The notes: a model not told the origin generated them from the sequence alone. A DNA stretch of 64,000 nucleotides from Rhodospirillales bacterium (GCA_038143065.1 JAYQLI010000035.1:1984894-2048893), one strand, 5' to 3'. Positions 24,455 to 31,631 are shown, counted from the first letter of the stretch. Numbers and translations: made by a program.

Positions 24455-25347
24455 GCATTGTCGAAAATAAATCTGTTCGTCCAAAGCTAGGTCGCGGCTT
24501 AGCCGCGTTACTGGGAGAAGATGGTTCAGACCACGTAAGTGAGGGCAGTGCTAACAATAAAGCCACCCGGTCTCTACCTGTGGCATCACTCCAGCCTGGT
24601 GTTGGTCAGCCCCGACGACATTTTAATGAAGAAGCTCTAGACGCGCTTGCACAATCCATTCGTGAGCGTGGAATGCTACAACCCATTATTGCTCGAAGGC
24701 TGTCTGGCGAGCTGTCTGGTTATGAAATTATTGCCGGTGAACGACGCTGGCGCGCTGCTCAAAGGGCGGGTTTGGCAGAGGTTCCAGTAATTTTAAGGGA
24801 TATGACGGATCGTGATGCCTTAGAAATTGCTTTGATTGAAAATATTCAAAGGGAAGACCTGAACCCAATCGAAGAGGCAAATGGTTATCAGAACTTAGTG
24901 GATTCATTTGGCTATACCCAGGAAGATTTAGCTAAAGCGGTTGGTAAAAGCCGACCTCATGTAGCCAATATGATGAGACTTCTAAATCTTCCAGCAAAAC
25001 TTCGTACCTATGTGGCGGAAGGTCGTTTATCTGCGGGTCACGCGAGAGCATTGCTGGTGGCCAAAGACCCAGAAAAACTTGCTGAACTAGTGGTTCAACG
25101 TGGATTGAATGTGCGTCAGACCGAGCGATTGGTGCAAGAGGGCGGTATGCAAGTACCCCGCAAACCCTCTAGTAGAGACCCAAATGTCGTGTCTGCAGAG
25201 AAAGATCTGAGTGATGCGCTTGGTCTCAAAGCTGCTCTACAGCCTGTTGGAAAGCGCGGCGGCCGTCTTGTTTTGCATTATAAAGATTACGATCAATTAG
25301 AGTTTTTAATCTCCCGTTTGACCAAGCGGCCACACCAATACACTTGA
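24451..25347 (+). CDS. parB: Chromosome partitioning protein ParB
   Basis: LGRGLAALL, IIAGERRWRAA, IENIQREDL, GKSRPHVAN, GHARALL. Confidence 0.97.
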   Translation: MSIVENKSVRPKLGRGLAALLGEDGSDHVSEGSANNKATRSLPVASLQPGVGQPRRHFNEEALDALAQSIRERGMLQPIIARRLSGELSGYEIIAGERRWRAAQRAGLAEVPVILRDMTDRDALEIALIENIQREDLNPIEEANGYQNLVDSFGYTQEDLAKAVGKSRPHVANMMRLLNLPAKLRTYVAEGRLSAGHARALLVAKDPEKLAELVVQRGLNVRQTERLVQEGGMQVPRKPSSRDPNVVSAEKDLSDALGLKAALQPVGKRGGRLVLHYKDYDQLEFLISRLTKRPHQYT

Positions 25348-25466
25348 TGCAATCAATACAACAATATAAATATTAAAAATTACAATACAATAAGAACAAA
25401 TATAAATTAAATATTTAATATAAAATACTACGTATTTAGTGATATAATTTGTTTTTTATTATACTT

Positions 25467-26461
25467 TTATATTGATATTGTTTTCCTGCTTTCTGCGGAT
25501 TGAATAATTGCCTCTAAGACATTTGTCGCATGCTCAATCTCTTCGGCACTAACGGGGAAACTATCTCCACCGGTAACGTCGTTACCAAAGCATTCGAGTG
25601 CGGCTTGAATGGTCGCCATCGCCGGGTAATCAAACCCGGGGTAACTAGACTGTGAGGTACCTTCTGCAATAGATGATATTTCTATTTTATCTTGGTCTCT
25701 AATCTCTACCCAACCACCAAGGCAATAGGCCGAAATGCGCCAGAGCGTGTTCGTCGCGGATAGGGTTGTCAAATGCCCGGTACAGCCATTCTCAAAATTC
25801 ATGCGAACTAGGTAGAGTCGTCAACATCAATTGGTGAAGCGACCCGTAGGCTTTGAACATTAACGTCTTTTATTCGCCCAAACATGTTGATGAACATGTC
25901 TAGCGCATGGATCCCCATCGAAGTCATACCGCCGGCTGGGCTCTCTTTTCGGCTATCGCGCCATAATCCACCCGCAGGTGCTAAATTAGAATCAAAGTGC
26001 CCATCAATATGGATGGGAGCCGCCAATTGCTTGCTATCTAGAATTTTCTTCATTTCTATTGAGTTTGGTGCAAACCGCCGATTGTGACCTATAGCAACCT
26101 TTAATCCCAGGGACTTGAAGGCATCTAAAGCTTGTTTTCCTTCTTTGCCGCTCAAGGTCCAAGGCTTTTCGCAGAAAACATGTTTTCCTGCCTCAGCTAC
26201 GGCCATTAATTGCTCAAAATGCTGGGTGTGGGGGGTTGCGATAACAACGACATCAATGGAGTCGTCGTTTAATGCATCTTCTAGACTGTCGGAAAGCGCT
26301 ATTTTACGATCTTCACAAAACGTATCTACTTTCGATGGTGTTCTTGTTACGGCCCTTTTAAATCGAAATGAGGCGCTGTCATCAACGGATGAGACCAAAA
26401 GTTGACCCCATCGACCTAAACCAACAATTGCTGCCCCGACCACATCACCCATTCTAAGCAC
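25467..26461 (-). CDS. Gfo/Idh/MocA family oxidoreductase (frameshift near 25811)
   Basis: VGLGRWG, HVFCEKP, GHNRRF, GIHALD. One added base joins DDST to LVRMNFENG. Confidence 0.88.
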
Positions 26462-26619
26462 CTTTCTTAAAAGAGCTTTCAGTATAACAAAGAAAATACC
26501 AAGAAGCCCACGACTGATTCATCTACACTAGAACTGAGTTTTACCTAACATTCATCGCTATTTGATGGGTTGTCTAAGCACTGGAAATCTAAAGCCCCCC
26601 AAAAATAGCTGAGACCTCT

Positions 26620-27330
26620 TCAGTGATTTAGATAAAGCTTAGTCATTACTTCTGGGTCTCTGAATGCCTCTGGAGGGCCGCTCGCAACAATCTGACCTCT
26701 ATTAATAACTACGGTGCGGTCCGCGACCTCTAAGGCGTGATGAGTATTTTGTTCAGATATTAAAACAGCGGTTCCTGCATCTCTGACTTTGCGAATAGCA
26801 TCAAATGTTCGGCCAACAGCCATTGGAGCAAGACCAAGTGATGGTTCATCAAGCATAATCAACTTTGGGGAACGCATCAGAGCTCGGCCTATAGCAAGCA
26901 TTTGCTGCTCTCCTCCTGAAAGTCGCCAGGCTTCAGACCGGCGCCGGGCCAATATCTCGGGAAATAAGGTCCAGATTTCTCCCATCCGAACTTTGGTGGC
27001 ATGCCAATTTCCATTGAAGACGGCCATCAGATTTTCTTCTACGCTTAGGCCGGGGAAAACCCGCCTTCCTTCTGGAACATAGCCAATGCCCAACAAGGCT
27101 ATCTCTGTTGGTTTCTGCGATGGAACAGGCTGACCTTCCCATGTTACTTGGCCAGAACTTATGGCCTCTAAACCCATTACCGCCCTTAATAGGCTGGACT
27201 TACCAGCGCCATTTGGCCCAAGTAATGCAAGTATTTCGCCGCTTCTAATCTTAAGGCTTATCGGGCCGCACCTTGGGGTTTCCGCGGGTCCGATAGTGGC
27301 CTGGTCAATATTGAGCAAGTCGCAGGTCAT
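26620..27330 (-). CDS. HAAT (Liv-type) ABC transporter ATP-binding protein, LivF-like
   Basis: GPNGAGKS, VPEGRRVF, LSGGEQQMLAIGRAL, LDEPSLGLAP, EQN. Confidence 0.92.
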   Translation of the reverse strand: MTCDLLNIDQATIGPAETPRCGPISLKIRSGEILALLGPNGAGKSSLLRAVMGLEAISSGQVTWEGQPVPSQKPTEIALLGIGYVPEGRRVFPGLSVEENLMAVFNGNWHATKVRMGEIWTLFPEILARRRSEAWRLSGGEQQMLAIGRALMRSPKLIMLDEPSLGLAPMAVGRTFDAIRKVRDAGTAVLISEQNTHHALEVADRTVVINRGQIVASGPPEAFRDPEVMTKLYLNH

Positions 27331-28842
27331 TGCTCATGTCCTAAATCAATCGCTGTGCCTAGGTATGCAGAAACTACGACAGGGTTACGAACAACGTCTT
27401 TTGGTTTTCCATCAGCAATTATACGACCTTCTGAAAGGCACACGAGCCGATCAGCAAGATTAGCAACGAAAGGAACGTTGTGTTCCACTATAACCACAGC
27501 CGCAGTATTTGCTAATTTCCTGACTTCTTTGGCTAGTTTATTCCGTTCATCGGATGAGAGACCGGCAGCAGGTTCGTCTAGCAGAACGACCCCGTTGGCG
27601 TATTCACGCGCCCTGGTCATCTCAACAAAACGACGCTCGCTCTGCGAAAGGGATTTTACCAGGCGCCGGTCGTTGTTTTTGTAGCCCACCACCGCATAAT
27701 TACCGTCAACTGTTTCATCCTCAATTAATGCGGGTGTTTGAAAAGTTCGGCCAATTCGAACACCGAACACTAGTTCAATTTGACCAGAATCCGGTCGATC
27801 GATACCAGACAGCAGATTGAGAAGTGTTGACTTTCCCGCGCCGTTTGGACCGATAAGGCCTACAATTTCTCCCTTTTTAAGGTTCAGAGAAACGTTATTC
27901 ACAGCAGTTAAACCGCCAAAACTTCGGTAAAGTCCCAGCGATCGAAGCGGTATTTCATCGCTTATAGGAAATTTTTTGGCTTTCTTATCTGAGTATCTGA
28001 TAAGCGAAAATTTGGGGAAAAGGCCTGCTATGCCAGTAGGAAGAAATAAAATAGCTATAAGGAGAAGAAGGCCATAAAAAATCAAATAGGAATCTTCTAA
28101 AAATCGCAGGTATTCTGGCCCAAAAGTAACTGCAATCGAGGTTATTACAGCCGCTGTAGGACTATAACGCCCCCAATTAGAACCACTGCCAGAATAGCAG
28201 CCATTGTTTTAAATGACAGGATGTCTGGGGAAACAACTCCAACTGCGAGTGCGTGTATTGCCCCCCCAAACCACCGCACAGTCCACCCGCTAGCATGGCG
28301 AAAAGTCTTGTTTGTGGACCATTTATTCCAAAAGCTTTTGCTGCCAATGGCTGTGAACGCAATAGAGCTAGCTTTTCTTGCCCAGCGTATCGCTTAAATG
28401 ATGAATAAATGAATACGGCGATTAGTGTTGCGGATCCGGATAAGAACAATTTGCCTTGATCATCTAAGAGCCAATCTGGAGGGGTAGGACCGAGGAGCCC
28501 ATTAGCTCCACCAGTCAAGCTTTCCCAGTTAATAGCAACTAATACTACTCCTTCCGCCATAGCGAGTGTGGCAAGAGCAAAGTAGTGAGTTTCCAGCCTC
28601 GCAGCGGCGACCCCCATAGCCGCAATAATTAGACTGGCTATAAGAGCTGCCGCGGGAACTGCAACGGCGTAGGGCAAATCAAGTTTAAGCGCCAGAAGGA
28701 CAACAGCATATGCCCCTAGTCCCATCGCTGTTCCCGCGGCAAGCGATAGAGCTCCTGCAAGGCCAAATACAATTTGCCAACCTATGGCACCAGCTGCCAA
28801 AGCTAATGCTAATGTAAGCAAATGCAGGTCATATGGACTCAT
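27327..28842 (-). CDS. HAAT ABC transporter LivM-like permease fused to a shortened LivG-like ATPase (2 probable frameshifts)
   Basis: HYFALATLA, LTGGANGL, AAKAFGIN. Breaks at G runs 28261-28267 and 28170-28174. The TM end IFYGLLL runs in frame into FGGLTAV, GPNGAGKST, RTFQ, LLDEPAAG, VVSAYLG. Confidence 0.85.
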
Positions 28843-29712
28843 ACGCGGCGTCCTCTGACGTCTCCAGCTAAACCTTCTGGTCGGAAAACGAGCAGTGTTA
28901 GGAAAGCTAAATACAGAACACCTTCGGCTACAGCGTGAGAGAACAGTGCTGCGCCAACAGTTTCAAATAGCGCAATAGCAACTGCAATTAATGCAGTTGG
29001 AAAGATTCGACCCCATCCTGCGGCCGTTGCAGCGATGTAGGCCTTAAGAATGTAAATAGCTCCAACAGCAGGAGTGACATAATGTTGGGTGGATAAGATG
29101 GCTCCGGCCAATCCCGATAGAATTCCAGCAAAAACGAAGGCAAATATTGCTAGCTTTATAACAGGAAGCCCATGGGCAGCAGCTATTTCCGGATCCTCTG
29201 CGGCAGCGCGAAGCCGCATTCCAAATCGGCTTTTAAGTAGCAAAAGAGCGGTAAATGTGAAGGCAAATATTGCCATTCCTAAAGAGATTATGCCGTGGGC
29301 AGATAAATAAAGCCCATCAAGGCGCCATCCACCACTCAAAATAGCTGGCAAAGCTCGAGGCGCACCGCCAAAACCAACAGTTAAACTATTTTGTGCCACT
29401 ATTCCTAAGGCGATGGCGGCTATGAAAGTAGATTCTACTGGGCGCTGACGGAGAGGTGCCCATGCAATAGCGGCCACCTACAAGGCCTAAAGCTCCACCT
29501 ACAAGTGCTGCCACTCCAACAGCAAGGACTCCGGTCGCCCCAAATAATACTGCAGTTACCCCACCATAGGCTGCCACTGCGGCAACATCCCCATGAGCAA
29601 AATTAACTGCACCGGCAGCCCTAAGCGTTAGTGCAAAACCGAGCCCCAAGACGCCATATCCAGCTCCCAGAACAAGTCCATTAAAAAGAAGCTGAAAAGA
29701 AATTGCGTCCAA
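28839..29712 (-). CDS. HAAT ABC transporter permease, LivH-like (frameshift near 29478)
   Basis: NGLVLGAGY, VNFAHGD, GMRLRAAAED, VFRPEGL. Confidence 0.88.
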
Positions 29713-29762
29713 GCTAAAGCCTTATTTTTTGAGAGCCCTACATTTCAGGGCTAAACATTGGC

Positions 29763-30899
29763 TCAATCCACCCAAGCCCCGTCTTTGTATCGACGAACTA
29801 CCGTTGCATCGCGTGATGCGCCATCATAGCAAACGATGAGCGCCGAATGAGCCATATCTCCTTTTCCATCGCTGGAATAGTTCATGGCCGCACCGTTGTA
29901 AGAGTTTTTACTAAGCCAACTACGCATGCTCTCTGGCGATTGGGCGCCAGCGTCCATGGCCTCTGCGAACATACCTACGGCATCATATTCTGCGAGTGCG
30001 AACGCGTCGGGTTCAGAATCAAAGCGGGCGCGGTACGCGTCAGCAAAAACTATAGCGGCTCCTTTTGTTTCTGCGGCAGGGGCCGAACCTGATTCAGCAC
30101 AAACCCCCTTTAGCATTGAGGGCTCTAGCAAATCAGCAGTCGTAGGTTGATGCATTGCGGAACCGGCTACAATCGGTAGATCGAGGCCCAGTTCTTTTGC
30201 TTGTCGGATTGCAAGTGCTGTTGGGCCCGCATGTAAATGCAAGAGAAAGCCATCTGCACCGGCAGCTGCGGCCTTCATTAAAGCTGCTGAAAGGTCTTTG
30301 GCTGCAGGAGACAAGCCCTCTTCATAAACTGGAGCAACGCCTAGGTTTTTTAAATTTTCTTTAAGTACAGTGCGTCCGCTTTGGCCGTATGCGGTTGTCT
30401 GGAACAAAATTGCAGGGCGTTTCATACCCATTTGATCAATGGCATAAAGGGCGTGAGCGGCTTTTACCACGCTGTCTCCAGGGAAAAAGCGAAAAACGTT
30501 TGTGCTTCCCATTTCGGTAAGCTTCGCAGTTCCCGATATAGTTAGGATTGGCAAGTTTTCTCTATCTGCAAGCGGTAATAATGCCAGCATTTGGGAACCC
30601 AGTATTGGTCCTAATATCGCGGCAGGCTTGTTACCTTTAAGTGCTCTTCGAAATGCACTTACTGCCACATCTGGCGCAGTGGTTGTATCCTGAACATCTG
30701 CAACAAACGTTAAACCGTGCCGTTTGCTAGCATGCTCAGCTGCTAAAATGGCTCCGTTGCGCTGCGCTCCGCCTTCCAGCGCTAAAAAGCCTGTGATTGG
30801 AGCCAGTACAGGCACATAAACTTCTTTGGAAACTGCGGATCCGGTGAAGCCCGATAAACTGACAAAAAACGTCAAAATAGCAAAATAGGCGCGTTTCAC
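29763..30899 (-). CDS. HAAT (LivK/LivJ-like) periplasmic substrate-binding protein
   Basis: Signal peptide, APITGFLALEG, ILGP, NVFR, AYG. First gene after the riboswitch; GTG start with GGAG RBS. Confidence 0.88.
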   Translation of the reverse strand: MKRAYFAILTFFVSLSGFTGSAVSKEVYVPVLAPITGFLALEGGAQRNGAILAAEHASKRHGLTFVADVQDTTTAPDVAVSAFRRALKGNKPAAILGPILGSQMLALLPLADRENLPILTISGTAKLTEMGSTNVFRFFPGDSVVKAAHALYAIDQMGMKRPAILFQTTAYGQSGRTVLKENLKNLGVAPVYEEGLSPAAKDLSAALMKAAAAGADGFLLHLHAGPTALAIRQAKELGLDLPIVAGSAMHQPTTADLLEPSMLKGVCAESGSAPAAETKGAAIVFADAYRARFDSEPDAFALAEYDAVGMFAEAMDAGAQSPESMRSWLSKNSYNGAAMNYSSDGKGDMAHSALIVCYDGASRDATVVRRYKDGAWVD

Positions 30900-30900
30900 G

Positions 30901-30992
30901 GCCGTTCTCCCTTCGCTGGCATGACCCAGAGCAGGTTCGACGGGTCCTTCTCAGCCGCAAGAGTTAGGTCTCGCGGCGCCCCAGTCGGCTCT
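30901..30992 (-). ncRNA. TPP (THI-box) riboswitch
   Basis: Minus strand reads GCCGACU GGGGC GCCGCGAGA-CCUAAC-UCUUGCGGC UGAGA AGG ACCC GUCGAA CCU GCU CUGG-GUCAUG-CCAG CGA AGG GAGAACGGC. P2, P3, UGAGA J3/2, P4 and P5 all pair; P1 is imperfect. Confidence 0.9.
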
Positions 30993-31039
30993 CTTATAAA
31001 ATGTAGCGTAATTAATGATTGGTCAATGCCATTAAAATA

Positions 31040-31067
31040 CTTGAACGGCTCTAACCGATCACCATAT
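31040..31067 (+). promoter_or_regulatory. RpoH (sigma-32)-type promoter
   Basis: CTTGAA-N15-ACCATAT upstream of the small heat-shock gene. Confidence 0.7.
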
Positions 31068-31078
31068 CCCTACTGCTA

Positions 31079-31175
31079 GCAGGGTTTGCCCAAATGGGGA
31101 GCCTTTGCGGCATCAACTGGCCCAACTGGGCATTTGGCTAATTTTAAACATCGCTTTTAAGGAGGATGTGTTATG
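31079..31175 (+). ncRNA. ROSE-like RNA thermometer in the ibpA 5' UTR
   Basis: Hairpins at 31079-31108 and 31120-31131. ACAUC(G)CU at 31148-31155 pairs with SD-containing AGGAUGU at 31163-31169, leaving the bulged G of the U(U/C)GCU ROSE motif. Confidence 0.75.
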
Positions 31176-31631
31176 CGTTCTATTGATTTTGCCCCACTTT
31201 ATCGTAGTGCCGTTGGATTTGACCGGCTTTTCAACATGTTTGAAAGCATGGACCGAGCAGACGATAGTGGTTACCCACCTTACAATATTGAGAAAACTCG
31301 TGATGACGGCTACCAGATAACTCTGGCCGTAGCTGGATTTGCGGAATCTGATTTATCGATTGAAGTAAAAGAAGATCAGCTCACCATTTCTGGGGGCATT
31401 GGACAGAGCCAAGACGAAAAGCGGGTTTTTCTACACAGAGGTATTGCATCCCGAGCTTTCCGGCGCGCGTGGAGATTGGCCGATCATGTTGAAGTGATTG
31501 GTGCCCGGCTCGAAAGAGGTCTCCTACACGTTGACCTGGAGCGGCGTGTACCAGAGGCTAAGAAGGCCCGCCAGATTAATATTTCTACTTCAAGCCTTTC
31601 AAAAACGATTGAAGCGGAAACCGTTAATTAA
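31173..31631 (+). CDS. ibpA: Small heat shock protein (Hsp20 family)
   Basis: DFAPLYRSAVGFDRL, YPPYNIEK, LAVAGF, FLHRGIA, GLLHVDL. Confidence 0.93.
   Translation: MRSIDFAPLYRSAVGFDRLFNMFESMDRADDSGYPPYNIEKTRDDGYQITLAVAGFAESDLSIEVKEDQLTISGGIGQSQDEKRVFLHRGIASRAFRRAWRLADHVEVIGARLERGLLHVDLERRVPEAKKARQINISTSSLSKTIEAETVN

Follow-up and report, generated by a model that had tools for sequence, protein, structure and literature searches.

We report here an operon of four genes that encodes a HAAT-family (LivKHMGF/Urt) ABC importer and stands directly behind a TPP riboswitch in a 64,000-nucleotide stretch of DNA from a Rhodospirillales bacterium (this whole stretch is hereafter the window), and whose pairing with the riboswitch is a conserved trait of the family. 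On balance we favor reading the operon as a TPP-repressed HAAT-family importer whose cargo is most likely the thiazole moiety (cHET and/or HET, possibly phosphorylated). The riboswitch, the anatomy of the operon, the conserved pairing and the gene inventories are shown directly; how the operon is regulated, that transport runs inward and which ligand is carried are the parts that we infer. No published description of a TPP-riboswitch-controlled HAAT importer was found in searches of full-text papers.

A TPP riboswitch in front of a HAAT-type operon

The features of the region are as follows.

30890..30993, minus strand: TPP riboswitch aptamer (THI element), from Rfam RF00059 and its conservation upstream of orthologs
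30897..30911, minus strand: predicted ribosome-binding region inside the aptamer, from the sequence read against the Rfam structure line
29763..30899, minus strand: binding protein, 378 aa, LivK/Peripla_BP_6 fold, with signal peptide (Pfam PF13458, 7.6e-41)
28839..29712, minus strand: LivH-like permease (BPD_transp_2; Pfam on both halves, split in the assembly)
27327..28842, minus strand: LivM-like permease fused to a LivG-like ATPase (Pfam BPD_transp_2, ABC_tran, BCA_ABC_TP_C)
26620..27330, minus strand: LivF/UrtE-like ATPase, 236 aa (Pfam ABC_tran, 4.2e-30)

The original prediction held that a complete TPP aptamer abuts the GTG of a gene for a LivK-like binding protein, and both parts of it stood. 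The Rfam covariance model RF00059, which had been proposed as a check, matches 30890-30993 on the minus strand with 60.5 bits, where the gathering score is 54.3 (E 2.1e-9), and the match spans the entire model (positions 1-105, not truncated), with a reduced P3 stem; by Rfam, the whole 4.63 Mb genome has just one other TPP match. In the sequence, the 3' strand of P1 stops 1 nt short of the start codon. The conserved GGGAG near the 3' end of the aptamer (30911-30907) is followed by a 7-nt spacer, which is the P1 3' strand itself, and by the GTG at 30899-30897. This GGGAG, as far as sequence can tell, can serve as the Shine-Dalgarno of the binding-protein gene, and a ligand-stabilised P1 would be expected to occlude the predicted ribosome-binding region.

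The binding-protein ORF has a signal-peptide-like N-terminus, and its only Pfam matches are Peripla_BP_6 and ANF_receptor. It was predicted to be followed by livH-, livM/G- and livF-like genes with overlapping stops and starts, which Pfam and the ORF coordinates bear out (overlaps at 28839-28842 and 27327-27330). One operon thus holds, by Pfam, Peripla_BP_6, two BPD_transp_2 permeases and two ATPases, with LivM and LivG fused (a single tblastn stretch crosses this fusion in most orthologous loci), which confirms the region as a four-gene operon for a HAAT-family ABC importer. As originally noted, no thi gene stands close by, at least among the families searched; thiE, thiD and thiL are elsewhere on the contig.

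As assembled, LivH is in two pieces (29386-29712 and 28839-29477), as is LivM-LivG (28177-28842 and 27327-28085), splits that had been overlooked in the original prediction. They are caused by 1-bp homopolymer indels, with one extra base near 29478 in LivH and two bases missing near 28264 and 28174 in LivM-LivG. With three frameshifts within two of its four genes, the operon might be taken in the window genome for a decaying, non-functional pseudogene cluster. We regard this as very improbable, since all three are single-base homopolymer indels, similar ones occur in nearby genes as well as in the operon of the second TPP riboswitch, and the intact frame is found elsewhere. The genes are intact in the 94 % identical locus L003 (290 aa for LivH and 505 aa for LivM-LivG), and every contig over the three sites, from four public runs of four studies, carries the frame-restoring indel: the extra LivH base is absent from contigs of X1, X7 and X15, and the missing LivM-LivG bases are present in contigs of X9, X7 and X15 (one intact-frame contig has 5 differences in 1213 bases). 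The frameshifts, being absent from the relative and from all public contigs covering them, are most likely assembly errors.

Conservation of the pairing and thiamine genes of the carriers

Orthologs of the 29763-30899 protein keep the upstream TPP element, a check that had been proposed with the original prediction. In 73 of the 80 orthologous loci the TPP core motif stands on the same strand, 5-126 nt ahead of the gene; three of the 80 (L008, L013 and L039) have no upstream DNA, and three further loci missed by the motif search (L006, L007 and L067) pass the Rfam threshold. Ten of the 11 loci scored with Rfam reach that threshold, the eleventh being L022 with 51.9 bits against 54.3, and two more orthologs from an independent even class sample also have a TPP element. 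Sources of the loci include records titled Thalassobaculum, Nisaea, Azospirillum, Skermanella, Roseomonas and SAR116; the binding protein, LivH, fused LivM-LivG and LivF stay together across the loci, and neither a thi gene nor any other conserved neighbor was found in their flanks.

An inventory of thi genes, likewise proposed as a guide to the missing precursor, found thiD, thiE and thiL in the window genome, and thiC, thiG, thiM, tenA and thiamine pyrophosphokinase nowhere in it, which indicates that a precursor is missing. With the Rfam score and the ortholog check, this makes three proposed computational checks that came out in favor of the original prediction. Among 50 transporter-bearing genomes (the set leaves out 30 loci of the 80, most of them Azospirillum) ThiE, which doubles as a check on genome completeness, is present in 48, ThiC in 5, ThiM in 4 and Thi4 in none; because these genomes are related, independent events are fewer than the counts suggest. 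ThiG is present in 5 of the 50, a figure that understates its frequency among all carriers since Azospirillum was dropped and ThiG is in its one genome tested; in the even class sample ThiG was found in 147 of 301 genomes. The five ThiG-bearing carriers are G082, G085 and G086, all with ThiC, G068, without ThiC, and G038, with a partial ThiG match only.

Within the window's order the transporter and ThiG are distributed in a complementary pattern. In genus g1 the transporter is present in 8 of 9 genomes plus the window genome; the sole g1 genome without it, G030, is the only one with full-length ThiG, and a contig-end fragment of ThiG occurs in G029, a transporter carrier. The transporter is found in 0 of 17 genomes of genus g2 and 1 of 10 of genus g3, with ThiG in all 17 and all 10, respectively. 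ThiE is present in 37 of the order's 37 genomes, ThiM above cut-off in none of them, and ThiC was not found in 36. A prediction test on the class sample was small and non-discriminating, the transporter being found in one of five large ThiG-less genomes and one of five ThiG-bearing ones.

Most carriers have two TPP riboswitches. Of the 30 best scorers, 18 stand before a ThiZ/ThiX/NMT1-type transporter and 5 before a LuxE-first operon, which in the window genome runs on into ThiZXY, and the second riboswitch usually controls a ThiXYZ-type pyrimidine importer. The TPP regulon of the complete Nisaea chromosome (G063) comprises thiC, thiX-thiY and the HAAT operon, in a genome with ThiE in which ThiG, ThiM and Thi4 were not found, and that of Thalassobaculum fulvum (G044) comprises thiM-thiE, thiX-thiY and the HAAT operon, in a genome without ThiG or ThiC.

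Binding site, cargo and proposed mechanism

The binding protein, which has 1706 homologs, gave an AlphaFold2 model with a pLDDT of 92.9, and Foldseek aligned it to cluster-B binding proteins at a TM of ~0.8 and 15-23 % identity. In LivJ-type proteins an Asp or Glu presumably binds the alpha-ammonium group while Ser, Tyr and Thr contact the carboxylate. Neither the acidic residue of the G-D/E-G loop nor the Ser/Tyr carboxylate contacts are present here: S247, invariant in the family, aligns with the Asp of 3td9, 4gnr and 3ipc, G101 with Ser and H223-A224 with Tyr-Tyr, and T124, the Thr of the carboxylate loop, is kept, all of these being invariant or nearly so in 59 sequences. The family has invariant residues of its own (E42, Q103, M104, H223, H250 and Q251), of which E42 falls where amino-acid binders have an aromatic residue. 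The site thus appears to depart from that of amino-acid binders, the acidic residue that would hold the alpha-amino group being absent. In NCBIfam the binding protein returned only PRK15404, with 62 bits against a cut-off of 477, and the best component scores against Liv/Urt equivalogs (26-194 bits) all fall below the cut-offs of 250-441; the LivF/UrtE-like ATPase, for example, scores 193.9 bits against UrtE and 181.4 against LivF, both under cut-off. We note separately that ThiB and ThiY were tried as identities for the binding protein and rejected: the NCBIfam scan gave no ThiB/SfuA match, the best TIGR01254 (ThiB) match of the genome lying elsewhere with 83.1 bits against 93.4, and Pfam gave no NMT1/THI5-like domain, the NMT1 protein of the genome sitting in the other riboswitch operon.

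The HAAT family, together with the fact that the position deciding between amino acid and 2-oxo acid in the Anabaena protein described below is non-acidic here, might also suit a TPP-sparing response, with import of the product of a TPP enzyme or of a by-pass substrate, such as branched-chain 2-oxo acids, rather than of anything related to thiamine. Cofactor-sparing control occurs in other riboswitch classes. This seems to us a poor prospect: a riboswitch on essentially every ortholog and a ThiE-positive, ThiG-negative inventory are better explained by thiamine supply, and prototrophic carriers keep the riboswitch too.

Import of thiazole is the reading we prefer: the pairing persists in many alphaproteobacteria, most of them unable to make the thiazole half, so that the transporter probably imports it. 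The ligand class already preferred in the original prediction (thiazole, perhaps cHET) is supported in that it fits the binding-site substitutions as well as the phyletic pattern. The Thalassobaculum genome argues in the same direction, since with a TPP-controlled thiM-thiE and no ThiG the thiazole alcohol must enter the cell.

Alternatively, the cargo might be whole thiamine or a thiamine phosphate (TMP/TPP), which would make the operon a counterpart of ThiBPQ in function, built on a HAAT scaffold; we consider this unlikely, though it ranks first among the rival cargoes. TPP riboswitches commonly control thiamine importers, the window genome has no ThiB-family match above cut-off, ThiL is present and could use imported TMP, invariant E42 could face the cationic thiazolium, and the absence of ThiM from 46 of 50 carriers would be no difficulty. 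Against this, thiamine pyrophosphokinase was not found in the window genome, which leaves no obvious route from free thiamine to TPP; the retention of ThiE together with a pyrimidine importer or ThiC would be pointless without a source of thiazole phosphate; and the Thalassobaculum thiM-thiE arrangement is not accounted for.

As ThiC is as depleted as ThiG (5 of 50 each), the phyletic pattern alone cannot separate thiazole from pyrimidine, and the assignment to thiazole rests on the pyrimidine specificity ascribed to NMT1/ThiY proteins. With ThiC missing from 45 of 50 carriers and 36 of 37 genomes of the order, the pyrimidine has to come from outside the cell, the window genome has ThiD, and a carboxylate-friendly HAAT pocket could suit PCA, which is among the orphan degradation products discussed in PMC11223231. 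Nevertheless, that this operon carries the pyrimidine moiety or a derivative (HMP, AmMP, FAMP or the carboxylate PCA) is in our view improbable: a ThiZ/ThiX/NMT1 importer under TPP control is already present in most carriers, the operon persists in Nisaea (G063) and G062 although both have ThiC, and g2 and g3 also lack ThiC, yet the transporter is absent from 26 of their 27 genomes.

Under the thiazole reading, TPP bound to the 5' riboswitch would shut off translation of the operon, and possibly transcription as well in relatives with a longer leader; with the Shine-Dalgarno and start codon within or beside the P1 helix, the importer would be made when TPP is scarce. The imported thiazole, once phosphorylated, would be joined by ThiE to HMP-PP, itself supplied through the pyrimidine route (a TPP-controlled ThiXYZ-type importer or ThiC, then ThiD), and ThiL would make TPP at the end of the route. 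As no ThiM was found in 46 of the 50 carriers, HET or cHET would need an unknown kinase, or the cargo would be phosphorylated already. No thiazole-kinase candidate was found, the two weaker ThiD-family matches in the window genome being a PdxY-type pyridoxal kinase and a ribokinase.

More tentatively, we speculate that this HAAT system is the so far missing high-affinity bacterial importer of cHET, and that its carriers have an undiscovered route to thiazole phosphate (a new kinase or uptake of phosphorylated thiazole), as suggested by genomes that mostly have ThiE and lack ThiM, ThiG and Thi4. E. coli delta-thiG uses sub-picomolar cHET, and the passages of PMC5899164 on this use name no transporter.

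Significance and comparison with known systems

Microbes exchange vitamin B1 and its halves at picomolar concentrations, and the stretch occurs in metagenome runs of estuary, marine and salt-marsh origin that belong to 12 studies. The B1 transporters tabulated in PMC10881298 (thiB, thiT, thiY, thiV, cytX, ykoF, thiPerm and omr1), a list used to read metagenomes, include no HAAT system and no thiazole importer. A conserved ABC importer marked by a riboswitch would be a testable candidate gene for thiazole uptake; it would reclassify many "branched-chain amino acid transporter" annotations among the homologs of the binding protein, and would point to a second missing step, the kinase. If the more speculative reading is true, the importer of cHET, the thiazole currency of aquatic microbial communities, would have been found, and by either route to thiazole phosphate many Rhodospirillales-type alphaproteobacteria and SAR116 would live as thiazole auxotrophs that rely on salvage, a way of life so far overlooked.

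The operon shares with the E. coli LivJ/LivK-LivHMGF system the Peripla_BP_6 fold, the gene order, two permeases and two ATPases, one with BCA_ABC_TP_C; the Foldseek TM is ~0.8 to closed forms such as 3td9, 4gnr and 3ip5, whereas the open E. coli LivK/LivJ structures 1usg, 1z15 and 2liv give 0.56-0.66. It differs in its low identity to LivJ/LivK (18-23 %), its scores far under the cut-offs of the NCBIfam Liv models, the LivM-LivG fusion, the replacement of the alpha-amino Asp/Glu by an invariant Ser and of Tyr-Tyr by His-Ala, and its TPP riboswitch control. Compared with UrtABCDE, the permease and ATPases score best against UrtB (87.9 bits), UrtD (137.8) and UrtE (193.9) and fall short of the required 250, 304 and 286 bits, UrtA gives no match to the binding protein, and regulation of the operon is unrelated to nitrogen.

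The best structural match is an Anabaena variabilis HAAT binding protein (4obb, 4nv3; E 1e-23, TM 0.82, identity 21 %), which shares the S-x-T-A-K loop and has no thiamine link. Its wild type has Asn at the position of the Asp of amino-acid binders and was crystallised with a 2-oxo acid, and by PDB titles its N280D mutant was deposited with valine; the window family has Ser at this position.

ThiBPQ and ThiXYZ likewise provide riboswitch-repressed, binding-protein-dependent ABC import for TPP supply, and ThiXYZ-type systems co-occur with the operon in the same genomes, but they combine SBP_bac_1/ThiB and NMT1 proteins with BPD_transp_1, families unrelated to the Peripla_BP_6 and BPD_transp_2 of the window system. 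Finally, ThiW is reportedly a predicted ECF-type thiazole (HET) transporter of Firmicutes, a prediction said to go back to Rodionov et al. in 2002. It shares with our operon the proposed thiazole cargo and TPP-riboswitch control, while belonging to another transporter class and phylum, having no periplasmic binding protein and usually standing beside thiM, whereas the window operon has no kinase.

The TPP riboswitch and its operon

A full-length TPP aptamer (Rfam RF00059, 60.5 bits, gathering score 54.3, E 2.1e-9) stands at the head of an operon for a HAAT-type (Liv/Urt-type) ABC importer, and its leader is one of two TPP elements found by searching the whole genome (4.63 Mb, 52 contigs, 97.6 % complete) with the same model.

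30890-30993, minus strand: TPP aptamer
29763-30899, minus strand: binding protein
28839-29712, minus strand: LivH-like permease
27327-28842, minus strand: LivM-LivG-like fusion
26620-27330, minus strand: LivF-like ATPase
25467-26461, minus strand: GFO/IDH/MocA oxidoreductase, 158 nt past the transporter (331 aa in the related locus L003)
31173-31631, plus strand: Hsp20/IbpA-like gene diverging from the riboswitch leader, kept only in relatives L003-L007
62561-62634, minus strand: tRNA gene (69 bits)

The original prediction, that the aptamer adjoins the GTG of a LivK-like protein, is borne out: GGGAG at 30911-30907 lies within the conserved 3' portion of the aptamer, and is followed by the seven bases of the P1 3' strand and then by the GTG at 30899. 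This codon starts a 378-aa ORF whose N-terminus resembles a signal peptide and which matches Peripla_BP_6 at 7.6e-41. The livH-, livM/G- and livF-like genes with overlapping ends that were also predicted are likewise present, namely a BPD_transp_2 permease, a second BPD_transp_2 permease running on into an ABC ATPase with a BCA_ABC_TP_C tail (Pfam), so that the livM/G pair is one fusion, and a LivF/UrtE-like ATPase by profile matches; stops and starts overlap between these downstream genes. Every NCBIfam Liv and Urt model scored the operon proteins far under its cut-off; the operon is a distant HAAT family member and no ortholog of a named system.

The switching mechanism that we infer, with import as the direction of transport, would run as follows. 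Plentiful TPP would be bound by the aptamer, P1 would close on the bases that separate the Shine-Dalgarno sequence from the GTG, and the binding protein would no longer be translated; the window's genus and some other lineages lack a separate expression platform, and in most others a leader of about 60-120 nt would leave room for one. When TPP is scarce the importer would be made and a thiazole moiety taken in, ThiE would join thiazole phosphate to the HMP-PP supplied by ThiD from pyrimidine either imported or made by ThiC, and ThiL would make TPP as the last step.

A promoter and terminator scan of 25300-31250 gave matches fewer than, or no more than, those in shuffles, with none at the leader. 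TTGACC (31026-31021) and TACATT (31005-31000), 15 nt apart, were spotted by eye and rejected as too weak for a promoter claim. The single-sequence fold of the leader RNA has z = -0.78, an uninformative value. Contigs of RNA library X15 overlap parts of the operon, an overlap that is not proof of transcription and in which the uncovered parts carry no meaning.

The window assembly breaks both the LivH-like and the LivM-LivG-like gene in two. Alignment with L003, a 94 % identical locus of a related metagenome-assembled genome, reveals indels of one base in G/C runs (near 29478, 28264 and 28174) and places further homopolymer indels in the gene next to the operon and in spacers. The four genes are intact in L003 (378, 290, 505 and 236 aa), and when Logan contigs from four public runs of four studies were aligned to 26600-31000, every contig spanning the three sites held the frame-restoring indel, one of these, from run X1, with 5 differences over 1213 bases. 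Because the genes are intact in L003, the covering public contigs restore the frame and similarly split genes occur in the genome's other riboswitch operon, we read the frameshifts as assembly errors, and we consider it highly improbable that the operon is a true pseudogene in the window's strain alone. Homopolymer single-base indels also split the GFO/IDH/MocA oxidoreductase gene and, in the other riboswitch operon, LuxE and LuxC; with so many, gene calls in this genome are to be read with caution.

The LivG-like ATPase domain (27327-28085) is short in the stretch from Walker A to the signature motif (LSQSE), and the fusion measures 505 aa in L003 compared with about 530-590 aa in orthologs further removed. 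The short form is probably functional, since L003 and L004 share it at 72 % identity.

Conservation of the riboswitch-transporter pairing

Among 8000 candidates scored, 1706 were homologs of the binding protein at E <= 0.001, and those with names carry annotations such as 'branched-chain amino acid transport system substrate-binding protein'. We collected the best 80 of 244 relatives from species-representative genomes (51-94 % identity), with record titles of Rhodospirillales and Alphaproteobacteria MAGs, Thalassobaculum, Nisaea, Azospirillum, Skermanella, Roseomonas and SAR116. The expected upstream conservation of the aptamer was evident: 73 loci have the TPP core motif upstream in the orientation of the operon, at a median distance of 87 nt (range 5-126) from the estimated start codon, and none of the 80 has it on the opposite strand. 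Three of the seven motif-less loci have no upstream DNA (L008, L013, L039), three are above the Rfam threshold (L006, L007, L067) and the last, L022, scores 51.9 bits. Rfam confirmed the element in 10 of 11 loci picked for diversity, and two further orthologs from an evenly drawn class sample both carry one (60.6 and 67.4 bits).

All loci with a long enough contig keep the four genes together, LivM-LivG fusion included. When the flanking ORFs of the 80 loci were clustered, all groups proved lineage-specific (phosphoribosyltransferase, GST, aminotransferase, epimerase and others); neither a shared neighbour nor a thi gene or kinase was among them. The GFO/IDH/MocA gene, kept only in the closest relatives L003 and L004, is outside the conserved unit.

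Thiamine genes and the cargo

We hold that the system very probably imports a thiamine-related compound under TPP control, and favour, with modest confidence, a thiazole moiety as its cargo. The thi inventory, which the original prediction expected to indicate the missing precursor, comprises thiE, thiD and thiL; thiC, thiM, tenA and thiamine pyrophosphokinase were not found in the genome-wide search, thiG gave just partial matches of 22-31 bits, and no ThiB-family match rose above cut-off. Within the window's order (37 genomes) ThiE is present in all, ThiM above cut-off in none, and transporter and ThiG are distributed by genus.

Transporter and ThiG in three genera of the order
g1 (the window's genus): transporter 8/9 plus the window's genome; ThiG full-length in G030 only, contig-end fragment in G029
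g2: transporter 0/17; ThiG 17/17
g3: transporter 1/10; ThiG 10/10

G029 carries the transporter. G030 is both the sole g1 genome without it and the sole thiC genome of the 37, with a full thiG adjoining a second thiE; this genome, 87 % complete, is either a genuine prototrophic lineage or a contaminated bin.

We then have 50 of the 80 carrier genomes inventoried, where ThiG occurs in 5 (one partial), a count biased downward because the 30 left out are mostly Azospirillum, as compared to 147 of 301 genomes in the even class sample (one of them, G292, unpublished). ThiE is present in 48/50, ThiM in four (all Thalassobaculum/BAL199-type) and Thi4 in none; the carriers are related, so such counts are not independent events.

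Several findings weigh against the thiazole reading. ThiM was not found in 46/50 carriers, and no substitute thiazole kinase was found among weaker ThiD-family matches, which were rejected as PdxY and ribokinase, or in thiE neighbourhoods, which show the usual gap-aldolase-thiE synteny. Four carriers (G068, G082, G085, G086) make their own thiazole, and the transporter occurs in 1/5 ThiG-less and 1/5 ThiG-bearing class-sample genomes, a small sample without discrimination. ThiC is depleted like ThiG (5/50 each). Alternatively, the cargo might be thiamine or TMP, which we think unlikely, or a pyrimidine, which we think less likely still.

The remaining TPP regulon bears on the choice. All 50 carriers have TPP elements, exactly two in most, and gene contexts were tabulated for the best-scoring 30 loci.

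Genes following the best-scoring 30 TPP loci of carriers
14: ThiZ-like ATPase, then ThiX-like permease
5: LuxE-like gene first (L097, L098, L109, L117, L118)
2: permease first
2: NMT1/THI5-like binding protein first
2: HAAT operon
2: upstream of thiC by coordinates (L096, L113)
1: upstream of thiM (L123)
1: SBP_bac_1-type binding protein first (L119)
1: no ORF, contig end (L102)

Nisaea G063, a complete chromosome, has three TPP elements, ahead of thiC, thiX-thiY and the HAAT operon, and has ThiE; the search turned up no ThiG, ThiM or Thi4. Three elements are likewise present in the isolate Thalassobaculum fulvum (G044), ahead of thiM-thiE, thiX-thiY and the HAAT operon, and this genome has neither ThiG nor ThiC. 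Nisaea would be predicted to require a thiazole and no HMP, and Thalassobaculum and the window's genus to require both. A TPP-controlled thiM-thiE in a ThiG-less cell means that thiazole alcohol must enter from outside. With NMT1/ThiY proteins taken as pyrimidine binders, the HAAT system is the sole TPP-controlled transporter left without a role there.

The window's genome has its other riboswitch in an operon (locus L093, G000:C35:2176000-2188000) encoding a LuxE-like acyl-protein synthetase, a LuxC-like acyl-CoA reductase, an ABC ATPase (ThiZ), a BPD_transp_1 permease (ThiX), an NMT1/THI5-like binding protein, an SDR and DUF3047, the transporter being of ThiZXY type.

C35:2185724-2185865, minus strand: second TPP riboswitch (65 bits)

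The SDR (best NCBIfam match PRK08642) is possibly OarX-like. The carboxylate-activating and -reducing pair beside a pyrimidine importer fits salvage of oxidised thiamine moieties (e.g., a pyrimidine carboxylate) by reduction, an idea raised, and unproven, in PMC11223231.

An AlphaFold2 model of the binding protein, built with 59 orthologs (mean pLDDT 92.9), superposes on closed cluster-B binding proteins (TM about 0.8, 15-23 % identity), whose titles name amino acids, 2-oxo acids, hydroxybenzoates, urea, amides and pyroglutamate; no solved structure was closer than about 23 % identity and none held a thiamine-related ligand. HMMER alignments to the amino-acid complexes 3td9, 4gnr and 3ipc, rather than coordinates, were used to compare pockets.

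Invariant family residues aligned with amino-acid binders
E42: an aromatic residue
G101: Ser
T124: the conserved Thr, kept
H223-A224: Tyr-Tyr
S247: Asp of the G-D-G loop

By structure titles, an Anabaena protein solved with a 2-oxo acid carries Asn in place of the G-D-G Asp, and the entry for its N280D mutant contains valine. Given the generally known features of LivJ-type sites, the pattern would argue against an alpha-amino acid. A carboxylate, for instance cHET (carboxythiazole), fits it; the pattern does not fix the ligand's identity. That the cargo is instead a TPP-sparing carboxylate we consider very unlikely.

Comparison with known thiamine transport

Full-text searches found no publication that names a cHET-binding protein or joins a TPP riboswitch with a transporter of Liv/HAAT type; a RegPrecise entry may exist. 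The parts of the sources consulted tabulate known B1 transport genes with no HAAT-type system among them and call thiazole auxotrophs rare (PMC10881298), count 19 transporter orthologs in TPP regulons (PMC3766115), discuss orphan carboxyl derivatives and OarX (PMC11223231), and describe use of cHET at sub-picomolar level by E. coli delta-thiG with the transporter unnamed in that account (PMC5899164). The cargo proposed here probably has no known bacterial ABC importer. A riboswitch-repressed ABC importer for a vitamin precursor is already familiar; here that part is played by a transporter family with no known role in thiamine supply.
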